Shown here: one piece after another, positions 2,286-53,041 of the stretch
How the letters are laid out: each line of letters begins with the position of its first letter
How positions within the stretch are numbered: position 1 is the stretch's first letter
Source: Ignavibacteria bacterium
GTDB lineage: Bacteria > Bacteroidota > Ignavibacteria > Kapaibacteriales > UBA2268
Reading direction: 5' to 3'
NCBI GenBank assembly: GCA_012518115.1
Contig: JAAYTD010000031.1
Span: 26,464-90,463 of the forward strand
Length of the DNA: 64,000 nucleotides
Position numbers and translations under genes: made by a program
The notes under the pieces: generated by a model
What the model was told of the DNA's origin: nothing
Databases searched by the model: none
Seen by the model: the letters and a program-made list of their open reading frames with translations, nothing else

Positions 2286-2633
2286 TTAATTAGATTCTTC
2301 TAATTCAGATAAAGCTTCTTCAACTGTAGGAAAATATGTAAAGAGCTCTTCTATTCGCGTAATACTAAGTAAATTCTGCAAAAAATCTTGAACGCCCACC
2401 AAAATTACAGGGACTTCACTCCCTTTATATTGACGATGAGCTAAAAGTAGTGCTCCTAAGCCCGAACTATCCATCATAGATACATCAGTTAAATCTATGA
2501 TAAGAGCTCTTACATCGGGTTGAGCAACTATTAAAATTTTTGCTTTCAATTCAGCAGCAGTTTTACCTTTAATTGTTTCGTCTAAAACTTTGAAAATTAC
2601 AACATCATCTTTGTTTTCTAATTTGAAATTCAT
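2286..2633 (-). CDS. STAS-domain anti-sigma-factor antagonist (SpoIIAA/RsbV-like)
   Basis: 115 aa. Contains IIDLTDVSMMDSSGLGALL with the conserved phosphorylatable Ser in DSSGLG. Confidence 0.8.
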   Translation of the reverse strand: MNFKLENKDDVVIFKVLDETIKGKTAAELKAKILIVAQPDVRALIIDLTDVSMMDSSGLGALLLAHRQYKGSEVPVILVGVQDFLQNLLSITRIEELFTYFPTVEEALSELEESN

Positions 2634-27993: not shown

Positions 27994-30180
27994 TTATTTG
28001 CCATTAAAAGAGAAAGTTAGAATTGTTAAATCATCTCGCTGTTCAGCCATTTCACTATATCTCTCTAATTCATTTATAATTAAAGAATTGACTTCGCTAG
28101 CTATATTTTCTTCATTAACTTCTAAATTAGATATGAAGTTTTTAAAGTTTTCCAATCCATATTCTTCATTTTTTTCATTTCTCAGTTCATTTAATCCATC
28201 TGTAAAAAGCACACAAAAATCATTTTTATTCATTTTTAATGTAAATTCTTCTATTTTATCAGCAAAAGAAAAGTCTCTTGCAATCCCATTATTTATCAAT
28301 CCTATCCCAAGTCCAGCAGGTTGATAGAACTGACAACTGTTCGAAAGTTTTGCCAATAGCGGTGTATGTCCTGCACGTGCAAAAGTTATATTCCCATCAT
28401 CATCATCAATTCTAACAGCTAACATTGTAACAAACAATTTTCTATCTATTTGATTTATTTCAAAAGCCGAATTTATGAGAACAAGTAATTCTTTAGGCGA
28501 GTTAGCTAGTGGCGCTAAGCTTGAAACAATACCTTTTATATATGCCATAATAAAAGCAGCAGTTATGCCTTTCCCTGAAACATCTCCTATTATAATACAA
28601 GAACGTCCGTCAGCTAATTTAACAAAATCATAATAATCACCACCAACTTCTTTTGAAGATTTAGAATGTACATCAATACTATATGAAGGAAAATCGGGAC
28701 AAGATAGTGGCAATAATTGCGCTTGTATTTTTTGCCCAAGTTCTAATTCTTTGTGCATCTCAATAGATTCTATGCTCATTTTCACATTATTATAGACTAC
28801 ATTCATTATATCAAACAAAGTATTCATCAATATTAAACTTTCTTCATTAAATTTATACTCTTTTTTATCGATTAAAATTAATGTTCCGATACGTCGCTTA
28901 TTTGATATTATAGGAATAATTGCTACAGAATTTGCCTCCGGAATAAATTTTATAAAAAATCTCCAATAAGAACTAGTTGGTACTGTTTCTATAACTGTTG
29001 GCTCTTCAATATCATATAACATTTCTTTTAACTTAGAGTTCTTATGTAATTTATATATTAATTCCACATCAATTCCTTCAAAAAATGGAACTTCAACATG
29101 TTTTTTAGCACTATTTTTCTTATATAGCTCACACCAAGCTGCCGTAGCTTCCGTAGCTACTTTGGTATCATGTAAAATTTTTTTTAGCAATAAATTAAAG
29201 TCAGTCCTTATTGAAATAATATTTTTATAGCTATTACTAATTAGATTTATTTCATCTGTTTGTTTGTCAATAATTTTAGCTGTCGGCAGAGATACAATTA
29301 ATACAAAAAACAATTTTATAGAATATGCTATAAATACTATAGCTGCTAACATTAAGAACATTCTATAATTATAGTTAATTACTAAGTAATTTATATCTTG
29401 TCTTACTTGTATTACTTGTTGAATTGAGAAAAAACCTATAAATAATATTAGTAATGTAACTGAAGTTGTAACCAATAAAATATTTTTTTTCGAGGTTGTT
29501 AGTGTGGCTAGCCATCTAAAATTATTTGTAATAGAAAAGATAAGAATAAATATTGTCAGATAAATGATAACATTAACTGTTGAAGACATTATTTGCTGAT
29601 TAAATATAATTTCAATCAATGTAATAACATAGGATAGAAGAGCAAGTATTATTAGAACAAGTATTATAGATTCTGTATATTTATTTTTGAACAATATCAG
29701 CCATTTATATACAAAAGACATCATTTTCGTAAATATATATGCTGCTATTATAGAGAAAATATCTATTGTTGTTATATAGCTAAGAGTATTTGTGTTATAA
29801 ACTAAACGACTATTGTTTTCTACAAATAACATTATTAGCAGCATAATGAGAACAACAACAACAGATATTCTTATATAATCCTTAAAAAACTGCTCTTTTT
29901 TCTGCTTTATTTTACTAATAGTATTTTTTAATTTTTGATATTCAAAAATTACTAAAGTAACAATAAGAATTACAGAATGGAAATAATTGATTAAATCAAA
30001 AGAAAATGAATCAAAAGAATTAATAAGATAAAATACGACATTTATAGCTACTCGTAATAGAATAAGAACAAATATTGACAATAAAATAGCATATTTTCCA
30101 TTACCTATATTATTTTCAATAAAATTTATTAAAGCTGATTTTATAAATTCTTTTATTCTTTTTACAGGCATTTTTATCAT
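27994..30180 (-). CDS. Polytopic membrane PP2C-type serine phosphatase (SpoIIE/RsbU family)
   Basis: ~8-9 hydrophobic helices in the first ~330 aa, a central GAF-like region, and a C-terminal SpoIIE-type PP2C domain (GGDYYDFVKL, IIGDVSGKGITAAFIMAYIKG, FTDGLNE, DDLTILTF). Confidence 0.8.
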   Translation of the reverse strand: MIKMPVKRIKEFIKSALINFIENNIGNGKYAILLSIFVLILLRVAINVVFYLINSFDSFSFDLINYFHSVILIVTLVIFEYQKLKNTISKIKQKKEQFFKDYIRISVVVVLIMLLIMLFVENNSRLVYNTNTLSYITTIDIFSIIAAYIFTKMMSFVYKWLILFKNKYTESIILVLIILALLSYVITLIEIIFNQQIMSSTVNVIIYLTIFILIFSITNNFRWLATLTTSKKNILLVTTSVTLLILFIGFFSIQQVIQVRQDINYLVINYNYRMFLMLAAIVFIAYSIKLFFVLIVSLPTAKIIDKQTDEINLISNSYKNIISIRTDFNLLLKKILHDTKVATEATAAWCELYKKNSAKKHVEVPFFEGIDVELIYKLHKNSKLKEMLYDIEEPTVIETVPTSSYWRFFIKFIPEANSVAIIPIISNKRRIGTLILIDKKEYKFNEESLILMNTLFDIMNVVYNNVKMSIESIEMHKELELGQKIQAQLLPLSCPDFPSYSIDVHSKSSKEVGGDYYDFVKLADGRSCIIIGDVSGKGITAAFIMAYIKGIVSSLAPLANSPKELLVLINSAFEINQIDRKLFVTMLAVRIDDDDGNITFARAGHTPLLAKLSNSCQFYQPAGLGIGLINNGIARDFSFADKIEEFTLKMNKNDFCVLFTDGLNELRNEKNEEYGLENFKNFISNLEVNEENIASEVNSLIINELERYSEMAEQRDDLTILTFSFNGK

Positions 30181-43442: not shown

Positions 43443-43781
43443 ATGCTTAAGATAGATAAGTTTTTAGATACTGAACCTGTTATTATAAAAATTAGCGGAA
43501 TACTTGATTCTGTTACAACAAAAGAATTTCAAAACGAAATCAACGACATTCTATCACTTAATCATAAAAAAATGATAATAGATTTTGCTGAAATTTCTTA
43601 TATTAACAGCAAAGGAATAAAAGCTCTTATAGAAATACTAAAAACTATTTCTTCTATGAGAGGAGAACTATATTTTGTAGCTCTCTCGCCTCATATCTAT
43701 GAAATATTTAAAGTATTAGGATTAGATAAAGTATTTCAAGTATTTGATAATTATAAAGATATCATAGCAAAACTAACGTAA
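43443..43781 (+). CDS. STAS-domain anti-sigma-factor antagonist-like protein
   Basis: 112 aa. IIDFAEISYINSKGIKALIEIL with Ser at the phospho-site position, and a C-terminal LGLDKVFQVF typical of SpoIIAA/RsbV. Confidence 0.7.
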   Translation: MLKIDKFLDTEPVIIKISGILDSVTTKEFQNEINDILSLNHKKMIIDFAEISYINSKGIKALIEILKTISSMRGELYFVALSPHIYEIFKVLGLDKVFQVFDNYKDIIAKLT

Positions 43782-43793
43782 TTTTTCTTAATT

Positions 43794-44828
43794 ATGAATA
43801 ATATAAAAAAAATACTGAAAATATATTTAACTTTACTGATTTTGGTAACTACTTTTAACAGTTCAATTGTTCTTGCAACAACTAATGAACAATATCAAAA
43901 AGTTAATATAATAACAACATATGCACCGAATATAAAACTTGCGGGATTGGCATTTGCTAAGTACTCTAATTCGTTTGCAGATAATGGTATTCTTGTTTCT
44001 ATAGATAATACTAACTCCAATAGCAAAGTTTTAGATCTCGTTTCCTCAGGTAAAAAACAATTTGGAATAATGAATGCAAATGATTTTTTTATTTATTATG
44101 CCGAATCTGAAAAAACACCTAATATTATAGTTGTAGGAAGTACAATAGTAAAATCAAAACAATTTATAGTTGCTAAAAAGAGTTCAGGAATTAAAAAAAT
44201 CAATGATTTAGAAAACAAGAAAATTGCTATTTCTATACATAATGACGGCACAAGCAAAAAATATAAAATATATGAATTACTTTTAAAGAAAAACAAGGTA
44301 AAAGCAAGTAAAATAGTTCATCAAAAAAACTATACAGTAATGCCACTTCTATTTGATGCAGTTGATGCTATGTTAGTAACAGATCCTGAAGAGCTCTTTG
44401 CTTGCTTTACTAACGGTCTTAATGATAGAACATTAGAAATTATTCCATTAGAAGATAAAGTATTAGAAAATATACCTGAAAGTTTTGTAATTGTAAATCG
44501 CGATTTTTATAATCTACACCCTATATTAACTCAGAAACTATTAAAGCTATTGACACAAGGTTGGCAAAACGCCGCTAATCCTAATAAAATAACAGACGTA
44601 TTAAAAATAATCAATAAAAGCGTTGTTATGAACAACTCAGAATTTTCATATCCAAAAGAAGTTTGGCTATTAAAACATATTGGAAAGAATCTAAAGCCTA
44701 AAGTAGGAATGGATATTATGACGAAAGAGAATTTTGAAAATATTATAAACATGTATTATAACAATAATATAATTCCAACTAAATTAAATTACAACAAAAT
44801 TTTTTCCCGGTTACTGATAAAACAATAA
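43794..44828 (+). CDS. Periplasmic solute-binding protein-like (NMT1/SsuA-type fold suspected)
   Basis: N-terminal signal/anchor. Alternating beta-alpha pattern resembling type II SBPs. No strong motif, so this is a low-confidence family call. Confidence 0.3.
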   Translation: MNNIKKILKIYLTLLILVTTFNSSIVLATTNEQYQKVNIITTYAPNIKLAGLAFAKYSNSFADNGILVSIDNTNSNSKVLDLVSSGKKQFGIMNANDFFIYYAESEKTPNIIVVGSTIVKSKQFIVAKKSSGIKKINDLENKKIAISIHNDGTSKKYKIYELLLKKNKVKASKIVHQKNYTVMPLLFDAVDAMLVTDPEELFACFTNGLNDRTLEIIPLEDKVLENIPESFVIVNRDFYNLHPILTQKLLKLLTQGWQNAANPNKITDVLKIINKSVVMNNSEFSYPKEVWLLKHIGKNLKPKVGMDIMTKENFENIINMYYNNNIIPTKLNYNKIFSRLLIKQ

Positions 44829-44831
44829 ATT

Positions 44832-47555
44832 ATGAATACATTACTAAGACGACTTAAAAGATTTTCACGTGCCTTCAATTTGCCATTAAGAGCCATATTT
44901 GTTTATATATTTGCAATTATATTATGTATAGCTGCATTTACTATTAGAATTCAACATGTAGCTAAAAATCAATTAGAAAAGGATACTCAATCTAAATTAA
45001 AAGCTATAACATCGAAAGTTGAAACGCAATGCGAAAACATTATGACAACTGCACAAATTGTAGCTAACAATGTTGTTGATCTAAATAATATGGCTAGTTT
45101 ATCTGACGATAAAATACGAGCTCTATCTGTAATAACACGCAATATAATGTATGCAAACAAAGATATTTTAGCAATTAATATAGCTTTAGAACCAGAAAAT
45201 AAAATTAAATATTCATTTGAAGGAATATCTTTTAATTATAAAGATAATGGAAAAATTGATACAAATTATTTTGAGTCTGATTCTAAAGAAAATGATTTCA
45301 GATTAGAAGATTGGTATATTATTGCAAAAGAAAACAAAAAAGCATTTTTTTCAGAGCCTTACATACTTAAATTAAACAATTTAAACAAAAAAGTCTTTTC
45401 GTATTCAATTCCACTTATGAAAACAGAGCCTATATCTAATAAAGATAAAAACAAAGAAACATTTTTAGGTGTAGTTTCTCTCGTTTATTCAGTAGATATT
45501 TTCAAAAACAATGTTGATTTTTTTTCTGATTTAAAAAACAACTTCAATATAGTTGTTTCTAAGTTTAATAGATTTATATGTCATCCATTAGAACGTTTTA
45601 AAGTTAATGAATCTAGTTACTCTATTCCTTTTAGCCCTATACAAGATATATCTAAAAAAATAACGCAAGAGACAGAGAAAAACAATAATAATATGAAACA
45701 CTTCTGGTTACATTCTGATGGAAAAAGTATCTTGGAAAAAGGTAATTATTATGTATCTTTTCAAATCATACCATTAAACAACTGGAAAGTTGTAACCGTT
45801 TATTCTGAGGATTATTTTAGTAATGTTGCTGAATCATTTTCAAGATACAACATAGCAGTCTCTATTGTTATACTTTTGTTAGTTATAATTGCTAATGTAT
45901 TGATATTTAAAAATTTTGATAAAGAAATCAGTATTATTACTGACGGTATCAATCGCTCTATATCTAATAACAATATAAATCATTTTGTTTTACCTACTTC
46001 AGTAAACAATGTTACTTATATTAAATTTTATGAAGCTATAAAAAAAATATTAGACAACTATACTACTCTGTGGCAAAAAAATAAAGATATTGAAATTGAG
46101 CTACAACACAATTACTTAGAACACGAAACTGCAATAAATACAATAACAAAAGAGGCAAACAACCAAATTTATAATATAATTAAAGAAAATGAAGAAATTC
46201 TTATAAGTAATCAGAAACTTATAGCTTGTGAAAGAATTGCAAGAATTTTAACTAAATCAGATGATCTCAAAAATAATTTAATTCAACTTTTTGAAGAAAT
46301 TAAAATTATCGTACCTTTAGATGTTTTAGCTATATTCACAGAAGATGAAGAAAAAGACAAACAACATTTATTGTGTAAATTTAGTACAAACGGAGTACAA
46401 CTCTTTAAGCAATTTCATATAAGCAAGAAACAAAGCAGCGAGATAATTTCCGAATGCTACAATAATAAAGAAGAAATTCTTATAAATGATATTAGTAAAT
46501 TTAATGATAAATATATTGCTACTCACAAAGAAATAGTGATAGAAGAAGACATACAAGCTATCTTCTGTGCTCCTATATTTGATGAGAGAAAAAACACTGT
46601 TGGTGTCTTAACACTACAATCAACTAACAAAAATATATTTAGAAAAATAGATAGGGTTTTCTTAGATATTATAATATTTCATATAACTAATGTAATTACT
46701 AGAAATAATAACAAGGAAAAAACAAGCACTAATCTGCATATAGAAGACAACCAAAATTTAATTTTAAAAACAAACTTTTTATATTTTATTAAAAAACTGC
46801 AAACTGCGGTAAATACAACTAGCACTCCATATGTTTCTTTAAGTTCTACACTATATTATTTGCTCCAAGAATTAAGACAAATCGACTATGCAAATAATGA
46901 AGAAAAGAAACAATATATTATTGATTTATTTGACAAACTAGATTATAATTTTCTTCAAATCAATGAAAACAATAAGTATGTCAATAGAATATTAAGAAAA
47001 GTGTTGCAAGATTTCAAACAAGAAAGTTTATCATTTGTAGAAATTGACTTAAATGATTTAGTACAGGAATATGCTTGTTTAGCTTATAATGGATTTAGAG
47101 CAACTCATCCGGATATGAACATAAAATTAGAATTTTACTTAGACAATACTTTAAGGACAATTAAAATCATCCCAAAAGATATTGCAACAGTCATTATAAA
47201 TCTTATTAATAATGCTTGTTATTCTGTTTACGACAAATTAAACAAAATTAAAAAGAACACAACAGAACAAGATAAAATTGTTTTTCAACCTAGAGTTGCA
47301 ATATATACAGAAAACTATTATAATGCAGTCTCTATTATTGTTAGAGATAATGGAAACGGTATACTTGAAGAAAACAAAGCAAATTTATTTACTCCATTCT
47401 TCTCTACAAAGTCGGAACATGATGGAGTTGGACTTGGATTAACTATTTGTCATAAGAAAATAGTTGAAAAACATAGAGGCGAAATCATTGTTAATTCTAT
47501 TTTAGGTGAATCTGCTCAATTTACAGTTGTTTTACCTAAAAATTTAGAAGAATAA
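44832..47555 (+). CDS. Membrane sensor with extracytoplasmic Cache-like domain, GAF-like domain and intact HATPase_c domain, but no recognisable H-box
   Basis: TM1 (residues ~20-40), ~290-aa extracytoplasmic region, TM2 (IAVSIVILLLVIIANVLIF). N-box INLINNACYSV, G1 VRDNGNGI, F-box LFTPFFSTK, G2 GVGLGLTICHKKIV. Where SHELRTPL is expected the sequence reads FIKKLQTAV. Confidence 0.65.
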   Translation: MNTLLRRLKRFSRAFNLPLRAIFVYIFAIILCIAAFTIRIQHVAKNQLEKDTQSKLKAITSKVETQCENIMTTAQIVANNVVDLNNMASLSDDKIRALSVITRNIMYANKDILAINIALEPENKIKYSFEGISFNYKDNGKIDTNYFESDSKENDFRLEDWYIIAKENKKAFFSEPYILKLNNLNKKVFSYSIPLMKTEPISNKDKNKETFLGVVSLVYSVDIFKNNVDFFSDLKNNFNIVVSKFNRFICHPLERFKVNESSYSIPFSPIQDISKKITQETEKNNNNMKHFWLHSDGKSILEKGNYYVSFQIIPLNNWKVVTVYSEDYFSNVAESFSRYNIAVSIVILLLVIIANVLIFKNFDKEISIITDGINRSISNNNINHFVLPTSVNNVTYIKFYEAIKKILDNYTTLWQKNKDIEIELQHNYLEHETAINTITKEANNQIYNIIKENEEILISNQKLIACERIARILTKSDDLKNNLIQLFEEIKIIVPLDVLAIFTEDEEKDKQHLLCKFSTNGVQLFKQFHISKKQSSEIISECYNNKEEILINDISKFNDKYIATHKEIVIEEDIQAIFCAPIFDERKNTVGVLTLQSTNKNIFRKIDRVFLDIIIFHITNVITRNNNKEKTSTNLHIEDNQNLILKTNFLYFIKKLQTAVNTTSTPYVSLSSTLYYLLQELRQIDYANNEEKKQYIIDLFDKLDYNFLQINENNKYVNRILRKVLQDFKQESLSFVEIDLNDLVQEYACLAYNGFRATHPDMNIKLEFYLDNTLRTIKIIPKDIATVIINLINNACYSVYDKLNKIKKNTTEQDKIVFQPRVAIYTENYYNAVSIIVRDNGNGILEENKANLFTPFFSTKSEHDGVGLGLTICHKKIVEKHRGEIIVNSILGESAQFTVVLPKNLEE

Positions 47556-47696: not shown

Positions 47697-49781
47697 ATGA
47701 CAAATCTGACAATTATAAATTTAATAAATAATTTTACTTTGCCATTAAACCACTCGGTTCATGTTTTTGCTATCTTGTTGGCAATTATACTTTTTGTACC
47801 GATAATTTTGAAACGAATAAATGTACCTAACATAATTGGACTTATTATTGCAGGTGTGATTATTGGTCCTTATGGACTTAACTTAATTGATAACCATCAT
47901 CAAGGTGTGTCAATGTTTTCCACTATAGGACTTCTGTACATAATGTTTATTGTAGGATTAGAACTTGATTTGAACGAGTTTTTAGCCAATAAAAACAAGA
48001 GTATAGTTTTCGGTTTTTTCACCTTTATTATTCCAATTTCAATTGGCTTTCCAGTTTGTTACTACCTATTAGGATACGATTTTAATGCAAGTTTTTTAAC
48101 AGCTAGTATGTTTGCTACTCACACACTTGTAACTTACCCTATTGTCAGTAGGCTTGGTGTTGCAAAAAATCAAGCTGTTGCAATAACAGTGGGCGGTACT
48201 ATTTTGACAGATACAGCAGTACTGATAATTCTAGCACTTATTTTATCTAATACTGACGGCGGTATCAACACGATATTTTTAATAAAGCTAGCTTTGTCGG
48301 TGATCGTTTTTTTCGCAATTGTTTTTCTATTAATACCACGAATTGCCAAATGGTTTTTTCAGAAAGGTGGAGGTGAAAAGTATTCTCATTATATTTTTGT
48401 TCTTTTTATCATCTTTTTCTGTGGTTTTTTAGCCGAACTTTGTGGATTAGAGGCAATAATTGGAGCTTTTACAGCTGGTCTAGCTTTAAATCGTCTAATT
48501 CCTCATTCATCGGCATTAATGAATCGTATAGATTTTTTTGGCAATTCCTTGTTCATTCCAATTTTTTTAATATCTGTTGGTATGTTAGTCAATATTTCAG
48601 TAGTTTTCAATGGAATGACAACAATAATTATAGCAGGAATTCTCACTATAACGGCACTACTCGGCAAATGGTTTGCCGCTTTTTTTACACAAATTATTTT
48701 CAAATATTCCACAATACAGAGAAATATAATCTTCGGTTTAAGTAGTTCACGTGCAGCTGCAACTATAGTGATAATTATAGTTGGATACAATGCTGGAATA
48801 GTAGATGAATACATATTAAATGGTACAATTGTACTGATTTTATTGACTTGTATCGTGGCATCTTTTGTAACACAAGCTTCAGCAAAAAAACTTGCTGTAA
48901 TTCAAGAAAATGCTCCATTGACAGCTTCTGAATTAGGTGCTTTCGGACAAGAAAAAATTTTAGTACCTATTGCAAATCCATCTAATATCGGTCATCACGT
49001 AGAACTTGCACTTCTTATTAAAGACAAATCCTCTGTAAATTCAATATCTTTGTTAGGTGTAGTCCCCAACAATGAAGCTGCAGAGAAAAATATAATTTCT
49101 TTTAAAAAGCAATTGCAAGATTTTATAGATAATGCAACAGCAGCCGAAATTGATGTAGATACAATCACTACTATTGACCATAATGCTGCAAATGGCATTG
49201 TGCGAACAGCACGAGAGCTTATGACAGATATTATTATTTTAGGGTGGCCTGGAAAAACAGGTGTGTTAGAAAAGCTATTAGGTGACAAAGTTGATTTGAT
49301 AATCAAGAATGTAGATAGAAATTTATTTATTTGTCATATCGAACAAGATTTTATTAATCATAAACGTATAGTTGTAATTTCACCACCTTTGGTAGAAAAA
49401 GAAACTGGATTTAATTTGTGGCTCGCTAAGATTGTAAGGTTGTCGCAAGAACTCTCTATCCCAATTTTACATTTAGGAGATCCCAAAACACAAGAAATAA
49501 TTGCGAACACTAAAAACTTATCTGCTCCATTTACTTTTCAGCCCCTTGTTGAATGGCAAAATCCGGTTTTGTATGGTGATATAATCAAGGATAATGATAT
49601 GATAATAATGGTGTCTGCACACCAAGGATATATTTCTTATATGCCTGTACTTGATCATTTGCCTACACGACTTGAAGAACGGTATCCACATCATAGCCGC
49701 ATAGTTGTTTATCCTAAACAACGCACTATAGAAGGTTTGTTGGAAAGCGACGATTCAATATTTGTGCCGTCAAATTTTTAA
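47697..49781 (+). CDS. CPA2-family cation:proton antiporter (Kef/NhaP-like) with ~280-aa cytoplasmic C-terminal domain (tandem USP-like suspected)
   Basis: 12-13 TM helices with a Na_H_Exchanger-type pattern (GLIIAGVIIGPYGL, LELDLNEF, GAFTAGLAL), then a soluble C-terminal region (ILVPIANPSN...IIILGWPG...IVVISPP). Confidence 0.75.
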   Translation: MTNLTIINLINNFTLPLNHSVHVFAILLAIILFVPIILKRINVPNIIGLIIAGVIIGPYGLNLIDNHHQGVSMFSTIGLLYIMFIVGLELDLNEFLANKNKSIVFGFFTFIIPISIGFPVCYYLLGYDFNASFLTASMFATHTLVTYPIVSRLGVAKNQAVAITVGGTILTDTAVLIILALILSNTDGGINTIFLIKLALSVIVFFAIVFLLIPRIAKWFFQKGGGEKYSHYIFVLFIIFFCGFLAELCGLEAIIGAFTAGLALNRLIPHSSALMNRIDFFGNSLFIPIFLISVGMLVNISVVFNGMTTIIIAGILTITALLGKWFAAFFTQIIFKYSTIQRNIIFGLSSSRAAATIVIIIVGYNAGIVDEYILNGTIVLILLTCIVASFVTQASAKKLAVIQENAPLTASELGAFGQEKILVPIANPSNIGHHVELALLIKDKSSVNSISLLGVVPNNEAAEKNIISFKKQLQDFIDNATAAEIDVDTITTIDHNAANGIVRTARELMTDIIILGWPGKTGVLEKLLGDKVDLIIKNVDRNLFICHIEQDFINHKRIVVISPPLVEKETGFNLWLAKIVRLSQELSIPILHLGDPKTQEIIANTKNLSAPFTFQPLVEWQNPVLYGDIIKDNDMIIMVSAHQGYISYMPVLDHLPTRLEERYPHHSRIVVYPKQRTIEGLLESDDSIFVPSNF

Positions 49782-49911: not shown

Positions 49912-50328
49912 TCAAATATCTTTAATTAAAGTTAATACATTAAATTCTCTTTCATCGTTCTTTGCTTCATAGTAAATTTCGTCCATAATTTTACCAACAA
50001 GAGGCATACCTAAACCTCCCGGCACCATTTTTCTTATATGCTCACATATATTTTTATCTAAATGCTGACGAATATCAAACGGCACTGCTGAATCTTTAAT
50101 TTTTATAATAATTTGATGTGGACACGTCTCAACTAAAACTGCAATAATACTGTTCTGATTATATTTATACGCATACTTTATTAGATTTGTGCATATTTCA
50201 TCAACAGCTAATACTATTAAATTTGCTACTTCGTTATCTAATGAGACATTTTTAATAAAACTCATTATTTGTTGCCTCATATTCGCAAGTTCTTCTAATT
50301 TCGCATTAATTTTTATATCTAACATCAT
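49912..50328 (-). CDS. RsbW/SpoIIAB-like anti-sigma-factor serine kinase (HATPase_c_2)
   Basis: 138 aa. LAVDEICTNLIKYAY (N-box-like) and PGGLGMPLVGKIMDE (G2). Immediately downstream of a STAS gene. Confidence 0.75.
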   Translation of the reverse strand: MMLDIKINAKLEELANMRQQIMSFIKNVSLDNEVANLIVLAVDEICTNLIKYAYKYNQNSIIAVLVETCPHQIIIKIKDSAVPFDIRQHLDKNICEHIRKMVPGGLGMPLVGKIMDEIYYEAKNDEREFNVLTLIKDI

Positions 50329-50333
50329 AACTT

Positions 50334-50690
50334 TTACGAATTATTAAACAAATTTATAGCTTCTTCTACTGTATTTGTAATGTGAAAAATTTCATCAAAA
50401 CCAAGTAAATTCATAACTTCAAAAATAGATTTAGATAAATTTGTCATAATTATATCACCTTCATTCTTTCGTATTTTTTCAATATACAACATAAATACAC
50501 CTAAACCTGCTGAAGAAATATAAGTCAAACTTTTCAAATCTAAAATAATTTTAAAACAATTGTTGTCTACATTCTTTTTTATTTCCTCTTCCAATACAAC
50601 TGAGGTAAGAGCATCTAAAAAACCATTTAAATGCAGAACACAAACTGTATCCTCTTTTGTCGTATTAATAAAAAATTTATTATTGTTCAT
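50334..50690 (-). CDS. STAS-domain anti-anti-sigma factor (RsbV-like)
   Basis: 118 aa. ILDLKSLTYISSAGLGVFM with the conserved Ser, and a C-terminal LLGFDEIFHI. Confidence 0.8.
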   Translation of the reverse strand: MNNNKFFINTTKEDTVCVLHLNGFLDALTSVVLEEEIKKNVDNNCFKIILDLKSLTYISSAGLGVFMLYIEKIRKNEGDIIMTNLSKSIFEVMNLLGFDEIFHITNTVEEAINLFNNS

Positions 50691-50791
50691 TTTTTTATAT
50701 ATTTAATTATTATCTGAAAATATTGATTATTATTTAAAGTTTTTTTGTTATCTTTGAAATTATATAAACAAAAATATTAGATGTTGATATT

Positions 50792-51775
50792 ATGATAAAT
50801 AAATTATTTCTGCTTTTTATTTTGGTTAGTAGCCTTTTTATATCTTGCAATCAGGAAGATATTTTTATTGATAATCTTCAAAATTCCGACTACTATCTAT
50901 TTGCTAGCGATACACAATTAATAAAATTTTCAATTCATAACGCAACTCAAGAAATCATACATGATTTACCTGCTCCCGTAACAAAAATAAAGTATTTTCG
51001 TGGAAATTTCTTTCTATTAATGCCTTCTATAAACTCTATTTACGTTATTGAAGAGAAAAGTTTAACAATTATTTCAAAAATTGACCTTAAAAGTATAAAT
51101 TTTACTCCTACGGACATTTGTTTTCCTAACGCAACAGATGCTTATATTTGCTGTAGCAATAGTAATTTTGTATCAATAATAGACTTGACTAGCTTAAAGT
51201 TGTCAAATATCAAAATCGCAGTAGGCAAAAAAGCCGTTTCAATAGATGGCAAAGGCAACCAAGTTTATGTATGTTGCCAAGATGATGACGCTGTGTTCGT
51301 TATTGACACTAGAGTAAACACAGTTGTAGATACTATAAATGTTTCTTCAAATCCTACTTTTGTAAATTTTAGCGACAACAACCAGCTAGCTTTTGTCGTA
51401 TCATCAGCTACAGAAAAAACAGATGCTTTCTTTCAATCAATTGATGTAAATACCCGAGAAATAGTTAAACAATTCAAGTTAGGAACAAGTACAACAGCAA
51501 ATATCGTTCCTACAGGAGTTGCAAGTTCTAAAAAAAATCTCTATATCACATCAAATGAATATCTGTTTCGCATATCAATTCCGAACGGAAACAGCACGAA
51601 CAATATAGCTAAAACTTCTTATAATTCTATAGGTTACAATCAAAGATTAGAAGAATTTTATCTTGTAAAAAACGATAGCAATTCATCTTCTATTATTATT
51701 TATGATGCAATTCAAAATAAACGAACTGCAACATACTTTATAGAAAATAAAATAGATGCAATTATTATAAAGTAA
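50792..51775 (+). CDS. Lipoprotein, YVTN/YncE-like beta-propeller suspected
   Basis: Lipobox SLFISC. Repeated ...V.VID... strands (VYVCCQDDDAVFVIDTRVNTVVDTINV). Family assignment is tentative. Confidence 0.4.
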   Translation: MINKLFLLFILVSSLFISCNQEDIFIDNLQNSDYYLFASDTQLIKFSIHNATQEIIHDLPAPVTKIKYFRGNFFLLMPSINSIYVIEEKSLTIISKIDLKSINFTPTDICFPNATDAYICCSNSNFVSIIDLTSLKLSNIKIAVGKKAVSIDGKGNQVYVCCQDDDAVFVIDTRVNTVVDTINVSSNPTFVNFSDNNQLAFVVSSATEKTDAFFQSIDVNTREIVKQFKLGTSTTANIVPTGVASSKKNLYITSNEYLFRISIPNGNSTNNIAKTSYNSIGYNQRLEEFYLVKNDSNSSSIIIYDAIQNKRTATYFIENKIDAIIIK

Positions 51776-51784
51776 ATTTAAGTT

Positions 51785-53041
51785 ATGACTAATATGGAAA
51801 AAAATATACAAAAAAACGATTGTATTGAACCAAAAACATTTGAAGCTACTAAACAAATGTTAAAAACGATTTTTAAAATATCAAGTACTTTCAATGGTTT
51901 AATGCAACAAGATGAAATTTTACGGCAATTTGCAATATATTTAATGGGACAATTTGCTATTAAAAATTTCGCTCTTTATTTGTTTGACAAGACAAAAGCA
52001 AGCTTTGTATTATTAGAATCGAAAAACTTTGACAATATCGCTAAAATTATTGATAACAATGATCTCAACTTTCAAGAAAATAATATAATTAATTTAGAAA
52101 ATTCAGACCACAAAAATAATAATTTGTTTGACAAAGATATAGCAAAGTTTGCTATAATGTTATCTGAAAACAAAGGCTTGCTTGTTATTGGAAGTCGTAT
52201 GCTCAATAAAGATTTTACTGAAATGGATTTCAGTTTTATGATTTCAATTAGCGAGCTAGCTATTCTGGCATTTGAAAACTCGAGATTAATTTCGGAAGAG
52301 AAAAAGAAAATACTTTTAGAACAGGAGCTAAATACTGCACGTGAAATTCAACAAGTTTTGCTACCTAAAAATAACCCTGCAATAGATAACTACGAAATAA
52401 TTGGCGATACTCAATCTTCTCTTTCTGTCGGTGGCGATTATTATGATTTTATAAAAATTGACGATGAAAATTATATGATAGTAGTTGCTGATGTTTGTGG
52501 CAACGGCATTCCCGCAGCACTTATTATGTCAAATTTGCAATCGGCACTAAAATCACAATTGTTTTTTGTTACTGACTTGAAAAAAATCATAAGTAACTTA
52601 AATTCTATAATTTACGACAATACAGACGCAGACCGCTATGTAACTTTTTTCTACGGAATTTTAAACATAAAAACTAATAAATTTACTTACATTAATGGCG
52701 GACATAACCCACCTATTTTTTACCAAAAACATAATAAAAAAATTAATCTTTTAGATGTTGGCGGAACAATTATAGGAGCTTTTGATCCACTTCCTTTTGA
52801 ATATGAACTCGGACAAATAAAATTGAAAAGTGGCGATTTAATATTGTTCTATACCGATGGTATTATTGAAGCAAAAGATAAAAATGGCAAGCTATTAGAT
52901 GAAGAATGGTTGGTTAACTTTGTAGAAAACAATTCGGAAATTTCTGCAAAACAAATGTTTGAAAAAATAAAAAATGAAACAAACAATTGCCAACCTGAAG
53001 AAAATGACGATATTACTTTAATTGTATTAAAAAAAATGTAA
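51785..53041 (+). CDS. Cytoplasmic GAF-like + PP2C (SpoIIE/RsbU-type) serine phosphatase
   Basis: ARE IQQVLLP, GGDYYDFIKI, VADVCGNGIPAALIMSNLQ, FYTDGIIEA and DDITLIVL motifs. Confidence 0.8.
   Translation: MTNMEKNIQKNDCIEPKTFEATKQMLKTIFKISSTFNGLMQQDEILRQFAIYLMGQFAIKNFALYLFDKTKASFVLLESKNFDNIAKIIDNNDLNFQENNIINLENSDHKNNNLFDKDIAKFAIMLSENKGLLVIGSRMLNKDFTEMDFSFMISISELAILAFENSRLISEEKKKILLEQELNTAREIQQVLLPKNNPAIDNYEIIGDTQSSLSVGGDYYDFIKIDDENYMIVVADVCGNGIPAALIMSNLQSALKSQLFFVTDLKKIISNLNSIIYDNTDADRYVTFFYGILNIKTNKFTYINGGHNPPIFYQKHNKKINLLDVGGTIIGAFDPLPFEYELGQIKLKSGDLILFYTDGIIEAKDKNGKLLDEEWLVNFVENNSEISAKQMFEKIKNETNNCQPEENDDITLIVLKKM

Follow-up and report, generated by a model that had tools for sequence, protein, structure and literature searches.

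A probable recently degenerated pseudo-histidine kinase encoded beside STAS and solute-binding protein genes in an Ignavibacteria bacterium

We analysed a 64,000-nucleotide stretch of a metagenome-assembled Ignavibacteria bacterium genome (GenBank GCA_012518115.1, contig JAAYTD010000031.1, positions 26,464 to 90,463; hereafter the window, with G000 for the genome), focusing on a large membrane sensor related to histidine kinases (HKs) and on the two genes that precede it. Three open reading frames (ORFs) lie on the + strand at 43443-43781, 43794-44828 and 44832-47555, with intergenic gaps of 12 and 3 nt. The first encodes STAS1, a single-domain anti-sigma-antagonist-like protein of 112 aa (PF01740, 1e-17; TIGR00377, 9.5e-15). 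The second encodes a 344-aa periplasmic solute-binding protein (SBP) of the NMT1/SsuA type with an N-terminal signal-like hydrophobic segment (PF09084, 1.8e-22; TIGR01728, 1.6e-13), and the third encodes the 907-aa sensor. An earlier description made from the nucleotide letters alone, the first-pass annotation, had proposed this three-gene unit and its domain layout, with which the ORF coordinates, the gaps and the Pfam matches agree. The trio forms the end of a tightly packed run that also holds mazG, gatC, kdsB and a DUF3108 gene, and STAS1 lies about 1 kb upstream of the sensor in the same operon-like run. Because no ABC permease or ATPase gene adjoins the SBP gene, the SBP is probably a co-sensor rather than part of a transporter. 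The three starts (43443, 43794 and 44832) are all in one frame, the genes being separated by a stop codon plus 9 nt and then by a stop codon alone; the shared frame is probably only tight packing.

The sensor is built, according to Pfam, from a first transmembrane helix (TM1), a dCache/PDC ectodomain, a second transmembrane helix (TM2), a coiled coil, a GAF domain, a degenerate dimerisation and histidine phosphotransfer (DHp) region and an intact HATPase_c domain. The core of the ectodomain (residues 101-199; 45132..45428, + strand) matches an MCP-like PDC model (PF22673, 1.7e-8), and the homologues P0003 and P0121 are annotated with dCache_1. The GAF domain (residues 486-622; 46287..46697, + strand) matches PF13185 at 1.8e-8 and PF01590 at 5.7e-6, with a ratio of nonsynonymous to synonymous substitution rates (dN/dS) of 0.23-0.30; dN/dS values throughout compare the window with the close relatives L015 and L016. 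The HATPase_c domain (residues 782-903; 47175..47540, + strand; PF02518, 5.1e-17) retains its N, G1, F and G2 boxes. Their intactness had been noted in the first-pass annotation, and in a 14-sequence alignment of the family the Asn, DNGxG, FxPFF and GxGLGL motif residues are all invariant. Among NCBIfam models, AtoS, ZraS, VirA and NtrB fit the kinase core best, and each of these matches begins past the H-box position. The catalytic domain is of the HK type (PF02518), nearest to the AtoS, ZraS and NtrB models, and not of the RsbW type (PF13581). Consistent with this, the sensor is not among the PF13581 (HATPase_c_2) matches of G000, and it contains a DHp remnant and sensor domains. AlphaFold2 (AF2) modelled the catalytic and ATP-binding (CA) domain confidently, with a predicted local distance difference test score (pLDDT) of 80-95, and the DHp region poorly (pLDDT 34-58) with a broken alpha-1 helix. 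The same 14-sequence alignment gave a continuous alpha-1 helix and a DHp pLDDT of 61-88 for the sister protein P0121.

The DHp region (residues 626-760; 46707..47111, + strand) is 8-11 residues shorter than in relatives and has no HisKA-type profile match. HisKA-family models did not match the whole sensor at E<=0.1. When the isolated DHp segments of the window sensor and of its close relatives in L015 and L016 were searched with HisKA, HisKA_2, HisKA_3 and HWE, the comparison that the first-pass annotation had suggested, there was no match at E<=10; in an identical search, used as a positive control, P0121 matched HisKA at 2.4e-8. We aligned the sensor with canonical relatives to locate the phospho-acceptor column. 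The segment LTAGIAHEIKNPLNFVNNF pairs with LKTNFLYFIKKLQTAVNTT, with 8 of 23 residues identical, no gaps, and an 11-residue deletion before it. A local match to the family hidden Markov model (HMM) begins at fvnnf/AVNTT, and its ungapped extension yields the same register. The acceptor column is then occupied by Tyr651, encoded by TAT (46782..46784, + strand), where relatives have CAT for His. The first-pass annotation had read a Lys in place of the His. It was right that no recognisable H-box is present, but its register was off by three, as Lys654 corresponds to position H+3.

All three of the closest homologues, P0001, P0002 and P0003, have a His at the acceptor column (within FLHFIKK or CLHLAKK). 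P0001 and P0002 are 89-90% identical to the window sensor (over the C-terminal region searched) and P0003 is 75% identical; together with the window sensor these make up what we call the window clade (four sequences). By the reasoning of the first-pass annotation itself, a His at this position in the nearest relatives counts against the proposal, discussed below, that it built on the missing residue. At the DNA level, a C-to-T change is the only difference between the window and L015 over a run of 60 nt. Because the three closest homologues have CAT at this column, the loss of the His appears to be specific to the window strain, within an H-box that is degenerate across the clade. An isolated change of this kind in a 92-contig draft might also come from the assembly or consensus of a metagenome-assembled genome, the true residue being His. 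We regard such an artefact as very improbable: short-read assemblies seldom contain wrong consensus bases, the rest of the gene diverges from L015 at about 10% of positions, which marks the two as distinct strains, and with a His in place the H-box would still be degenerate and the main conclusion unchanged. His636 (in TNLHIED) was considered as an alternative acceptor and ruled out, since this residue is not conserved and is Asp in P0003.

Degeneration of the helix extends well beyond the acceptor residue. Even where the His is kept, members of the window clade have no acidic residue at H+1 (Phe or Leu in place of Glu or Asp) and no N-P motif. Alignment methods did not agree on this helix: hmmalign, run against a canonical DHp-CA HMM, could not align the clade's highly diverged alpha-1 helix, and two MAFFT runs placed the gaps differently, the second deleting HEIKNPLN outright. 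Because of this disagreement, we treat it only as likely that the His of the clade is homologous to the acceptor His. Under either alignment, no functional H-box is left.

A scan of genome contigs with the sensor returned no relatives, which were obtained by genome search instead. Among 1.84 billion representative proteins searched, full-length homologues were few, with identities of 19-28%, and all of these wider full-length homologues carry the perfect H-box motif LTAGIAHEIKNPLNF. Maximum-likelihood analysis nests the window clade within canonical kinases, as the sister group of P0121 (support 99/98). Its stem branch is long, at 2.12 substitutions per site compared to 0.99 for P0121. These data indicate that the sensor descends from a true histidine kinase and represents a fast-evolving offshoot of an ordinary HK family.

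Gene neighbourhoods of the relatives show that the association with STAS and SBP genes is shared by kinases whose H-box is complete. P0121 lies in the order STAS, NMT1 SBP, HK, and P0144, G017 and G100 each have a STAS gene followed by the HK gene. Counting the window, five lineages place STAS1 next to the sensor. These orthologous arrangements show that STAS, SBP and sensor make up a conserved unit, in support of this part of the first-pass reading. The same annotation had proposed checking whether homologues always co-occur with a STAS gene; one accompanies the kinase in P0121, P0144, G017 and G100, but no STAS gene was present within the ~400 nt of upstream sequence available for P0123 and P0130. 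An NMT1-type SBP gene lies immediately upstream of the kinase in P0121, G064 and P0125. The cassettes of the last two are larger: G064 has SBP, HK, a single-domain receiver (REC), REC-PP2C, an RsbW-like kinase and STAS, and P0125 has SBP, HK, REC-PP2C, an RsbW-like kinase and STAS, without the separate REC. In G001, a genome of the same genus as G000, the region is not colinear and RsbW is just 48% identical, so synteny is uninformative there. Because all STAS-linked orthologues have a perfect H-box, the STAS link is older than the loss of the His and belongs to canonical histidine kinases. It is most simply understood as the known wiring in which an HK acts on a REC-PP2C protein that acts in turn on a STAS protein.

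The REC-PP2C component is conserved elsewhere in the family and missing here. Orthologues in G064, G100 and G017, which represent three other genera, are 54-55% identical to one another, and G141 has one as well. Neither phmmer on ORFs nor six-frame tblastn found an orthologue in G000, a 97%-complete draft, and only PP2C-only and REC-only partial matches were returned. The companion single-domain REC is likewise missing from G000. What the window does hold, within 9 kb and without REC-PP2C, is STAS1, an RsbW-like kinase, a second STAS protein (STAS2) and a PP2C without a receiver domain. The RsbW/SpoIIAB-like serine kinase (138 aa; 49912..50328, - strand; PF13581, 2.4e-20; RsbW model, 2.1e-12) is one of two in G000 and is the orthodox candidate kinase for the STAS proteins at the locus. 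STAS2 (50334..50690, - strand; PF01740, 1.3e-19) is an antagonist paired with it. The SpoIIE-type PP2C phosphatase (418 aa; 51785..53041, + strand) is supported by PF07228 in its L015 orthologue and by a PF07228 match at C8:78923-79495; its N-terminus is not a receiver domain, and only its PP2C half aligns with the REC-PP2C of G064. In total, G000 encodes two RsbW-like kinases, six STAS domains, three PP2Cs and 17 receiver domains.

We used dN/dS to examine the constraint on each gene. For the sensor the ratio was 0.36-0.40 and for the SBP 0.32-0.38, while eight of the nine other locus genes (mazG, gatC, kdsB, DUF3108, antiporter, RsbW, STAS2 and PP2C) gave 0.04-0.20. The sensor and SBP therefore evolve 3-5 times faster than their neighbours, and the sensor about 3 times faster than STAS1 (dN/dS 0.12 against L015). 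Selection on the sensor and SBP is relaxed, although their divergence does not separate relaxed constraint from diversifying selection on exposed parts. In the H-box helix (residues 636-675, 40 codons), dN/dS was 1.0-1.9, and its evolution looks neutral. Nevertheless, the sensor ORF is open in four lineages, with no stop codons despite about 10% nucleotide divergence. Given this intact frame, the retained ATP-binding motifs and a dN/dS of about 0.4, the sensor gene is not dead and remains under weakened but real purifying selection. Amino acid identity within the species-level cluster was 77-84% for the SBP and sensor and 93-99% for the eight other compared locus genes.

These results bear on whether the protein of the clade retains histidine kinase activity through the His of FLHFIKK, with either a null (H651Y) allele in the window strain or a different partner regulator. 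A His at the aligned column in three of the four clade members, the 8 of 23 ungapped identities to the canonical H-box, the orphans among the 17 receiver domains of the genome and a gene that is open throughout are all compatible with such activity. However, position H+1 is not acidic but Phe or Leu and there is no N-P motif, the His-bearing relatives also have no HisKA match at E<=10, and dN/dS in the helix is at least 1. In addition, the conserved family partner REC-PP2C is missing, and the alternative alignment deletes the whole H-box. We consider a working kinase rather unlikely, although the His-bearing relatives may have kept weak kinase activity, with a null allele in the window. A small soluble kinase encoded on contig C64 was examined as a heterodimer partner and rejected; it has a canonical H-box and no link to the locus.

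STAS1 contains a phosphorylatable serine, Ser56 (YINS56KG), that is equivalent to Ser58 of SpoIIAA and invariant among orthologues. STAS1 orthologues, with scores above 175 bits, are confined to genera in which this sensor is present, and the next-best STAS proteins reach no more than 94 bits. STAS1, STAS2 and the cassette-type STAS proteins group together in a STAS tree that does not resolve derivation of STAS1 from either of the others. In the P0003 strain, STAS1 is a pseudogene (L016:3115-3386; L017:2238-2509; two assemblies, possibly of one and the same sample) with an internal deletion of about residues 29-52 and a frameshift, which together remove the phospho-Ser motif. The 905-aa sensor, the SBP and the DUF3108 gene beside it are intact. 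STAS1 is thus dispensable in one strain.

Two further observations on STAS1 relatives can be added. G141, a 72%-complete genome from the same genus as G017, has a STAS1 orthologue (L072:4749-5090, G141:C16) and a REC/REC-PP2C pair, with no sensor found within 4 kb of the STAS1 orthologue at that level of completeness. Many genomes of the family also encode proteins of ~405-430 aa with a STAS1-like N-terminal STAS domain (72-95 bits), at L067:7817-9070, at G064:C1:3288435-3288764 (L040) and in G088, G089, G090, G093 and G105; one such protein closes the SBP-HK-REC-PP2C-RsbW-STAS cassette of P0125.

From the missing His, the first-pass annotation had proposed a receptor-type serine kinase, in which the HK-type ATPase domain of the sensor would phosphorylate Ser56 of STAS1 directly upon binding of a ligand delivered by the SBP. 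Proteins with the HK fold can become serine kinases, as in the mitochondrial kinases PDK and BCKDK and in plant phytochromes and ethylene receptors. The adjacency of STAS1 and sensor in five lineages, the invariance of Ser56, the restriction of the STAS1 orthogroup to genera with this sensor and the combination of intact ATP-binding motifs with a lost His limb would all fit. However, the STAS link occurs with fully canonical kinases, the catalytic domain is not of the RsbW type, and RsbW and REC-PP2C are themselves encoded in the related cassettes of G064 and P0125. Wherever a genome has a STAS1-HK pair, it also encodes free RsbW-like kinases; these, together with the PP2Cs found in the same genomes, led us to reject the sensor as the sole possible STAS kinase. 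Furthermore, STAS1 has been pseudogenised in the P0003 strain while the sensor is intact, and the evolutionary rate of the sensor is about three times that of STAS1. The idea that the loss of the His marks a receptor-type serine kinase is therefore not supported, and we consider such a kinase improbable. Much the same doubt applies to a broader version, in which the pairing of STAS1 and kinase in at least three genera would reflect a direct STAS partnership with an HK-type catalytic domain, which in the His-less clade would be the sole output, binding or Ser-phosphorylating STAS1 in response to an SBP-delivered ligand. If such a direct partnership were real, the sensor would be a partner-switch kinase of the receptor type with a true histidine kinase as its ancestor. 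The locus would gain real interest only if the kinase domain were shown to have STAS1 as a direct partner or substrate.

Taken together, our data favour the view, to which we assign a probability of roughly 60%, that the sensor is a recently degenerated, lineage-specific pseudo-histidine kinase within an Ignavibacteria-type family of SBP-assisted dCache-GAF histidine kinases, and that it is either a partner-switch relic or a repurposed input. In canonical members of the family, the NMT1-type SBP would report a periplasmic ligand to the kinase ectodomain. The kinase would autophosphorylate at the H-box His and pass the phosphate to the REC-PP2C response regulator, which would set STAS phosphorylation against an opposing RsbW-like serine kinase, as in a classic partner switch. 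In the window lineage the phosphotransfer limb appears to have been lost: the H-box helix has become shorter and can no longer be recognised, neither the acidic residue at H+1 nor the N-P motif remains, and no REC-PP2C or companion REC is found in the genome. In the window strain, the last vestige, His651, would have become Tyr through a single C-to-T change. The sensor probably still binds ATP and, if it signals at all, may do so by protein contact rather than His-to-Asp transfer. STAS1 would most likely be handled by the free-standing RsbW-like kinases and PP2Cs of the 64-kb window.

Several points weigh against the pseudo-histidine kinase interpretation. The alignment of alpha-1 is ambiguous, and the shallow alignment may explain part of the low AF2 confidence. 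The clade consists of only four sequences, with dN/dS for the H-box helix drawn from 40 codons, and since G000 is a draft in 92 contigs the absence of REC-PP2C is not absolute. The retention of the ORF and of the ATP-binding motifs implies that some activity is still selected. Finally, STAS1 is under strong purifying selection in two strains (0.12) and is still linked to the sensor, which fits direct interaction too. If the sensor is indeed a pseudo-histidine kinase, it captures the two-component input to a partner switch in the middle of being dismantled: REC-PP2C is gone, the H-box is drifting and one strain no longer has the last His, but the parts that bind ATP and sense the ligand persist. 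It would be a natural example of how a pseudo-histidine kinase originates, and would introduce no new signalling principle. The association of a small STAS protein and an NMT1-type SBP with a family of dCache-GAF kinases across Ignavibacteria-like genomes, in some cases joined by REC-PP2C and RsbW, is itself uncharacterised.

Other features of the window lie around this unit. Downstream of the sensor are a CPA-type Na+/H+ antiporter with a C-terminal Usp-like domain (47697-49781), between the sensor and the RsbW-STAS2 pair, and then the RsbW-like kinase, STAS2, a beta-propeller lipoprotein and the PP2C. L015 and L016 share this order of sensor, CPA antiporter and RsbW-STAS2. No sigma factor was seen adjoining the partner-switch genes of the window. 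Including genes at 2286-2633 (- strand), 27994-30180 (- strand) and 49912-53041, most of the partner-switch parts of the 2.5-Mb genome fall in this one 64-kb window (three of six STAS domains, one of two RsbW-like kinases and two of three PP2Cs).

Sensor kinases that depend on an SBP are known from LuxP-LuxQ, TorT-TorS and ChvE-VirA, in which a periplasmic SBP that has no transporter and is encoded beside a membrane kinase acts as a ligand-binding co-sensor. The window SBP differs from these in belonging to the NMT1/SsuA family, and its interaction with the kinase is suggested by synteny. RsbW, SpoIIAB and RsbT resemble the window sensor in having a GHKL ATPase fold, no phospho-His and an adjoining STAS gene with a conserved Ser. 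However, they are small single-domain HATPase_c_2 proteins without DHp or sensor domains, while the HATPase_c domain of the window sensor is of the NtrB/AtoS type.

The wiring from HK through REC-PP2C to STAS has been demonstrated for RsfS/RsfR/RsfB in the SigF system of Mycobacterium smegmatis (PMC10950880) and for RsbK/RsbY in the sigma-B system of Bacillus cereus (PMC4574943, PMC9912610), and has been proposed for HenR (PMC13555669). In both RsbK-RsbY-RsbV-RsbW and RsfS-RsfR-RsfB, a membrane HK controls a REC-PP2C that sets STAS phosphorylation against an RsbW-type kinase, and the cassettes of the relatives G064 and P0125 match this scheme. The window sensor differs in combining dCache and GAF domains with a dedicated NMT1-type SBP, whereas RsfS has a CHASE3 domain and RsbK is a hybrid kinase. 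The window also has no sigma factor in cis, and with REC-PP2C absent and the H-box decayed its wiring would be broken or changed. DivL of Caulobacter is a pseudo-histidine kinase with Tyr in place of the His (PMC4211667). Like the window sensor, DivL has the HK fold with Tyr in the acceptor column and has kept its CA domain; DivL signals by protein contact and not by phosphotransfer. However, the Tyr of DivL is conserved in its orthologues and DivL has a defined partner in DivK~P/CckA, while the Tyr of the window sensor is found in one strain only, its relatives P0001, P0002 and P0003 have His, and its helix looks neutral.

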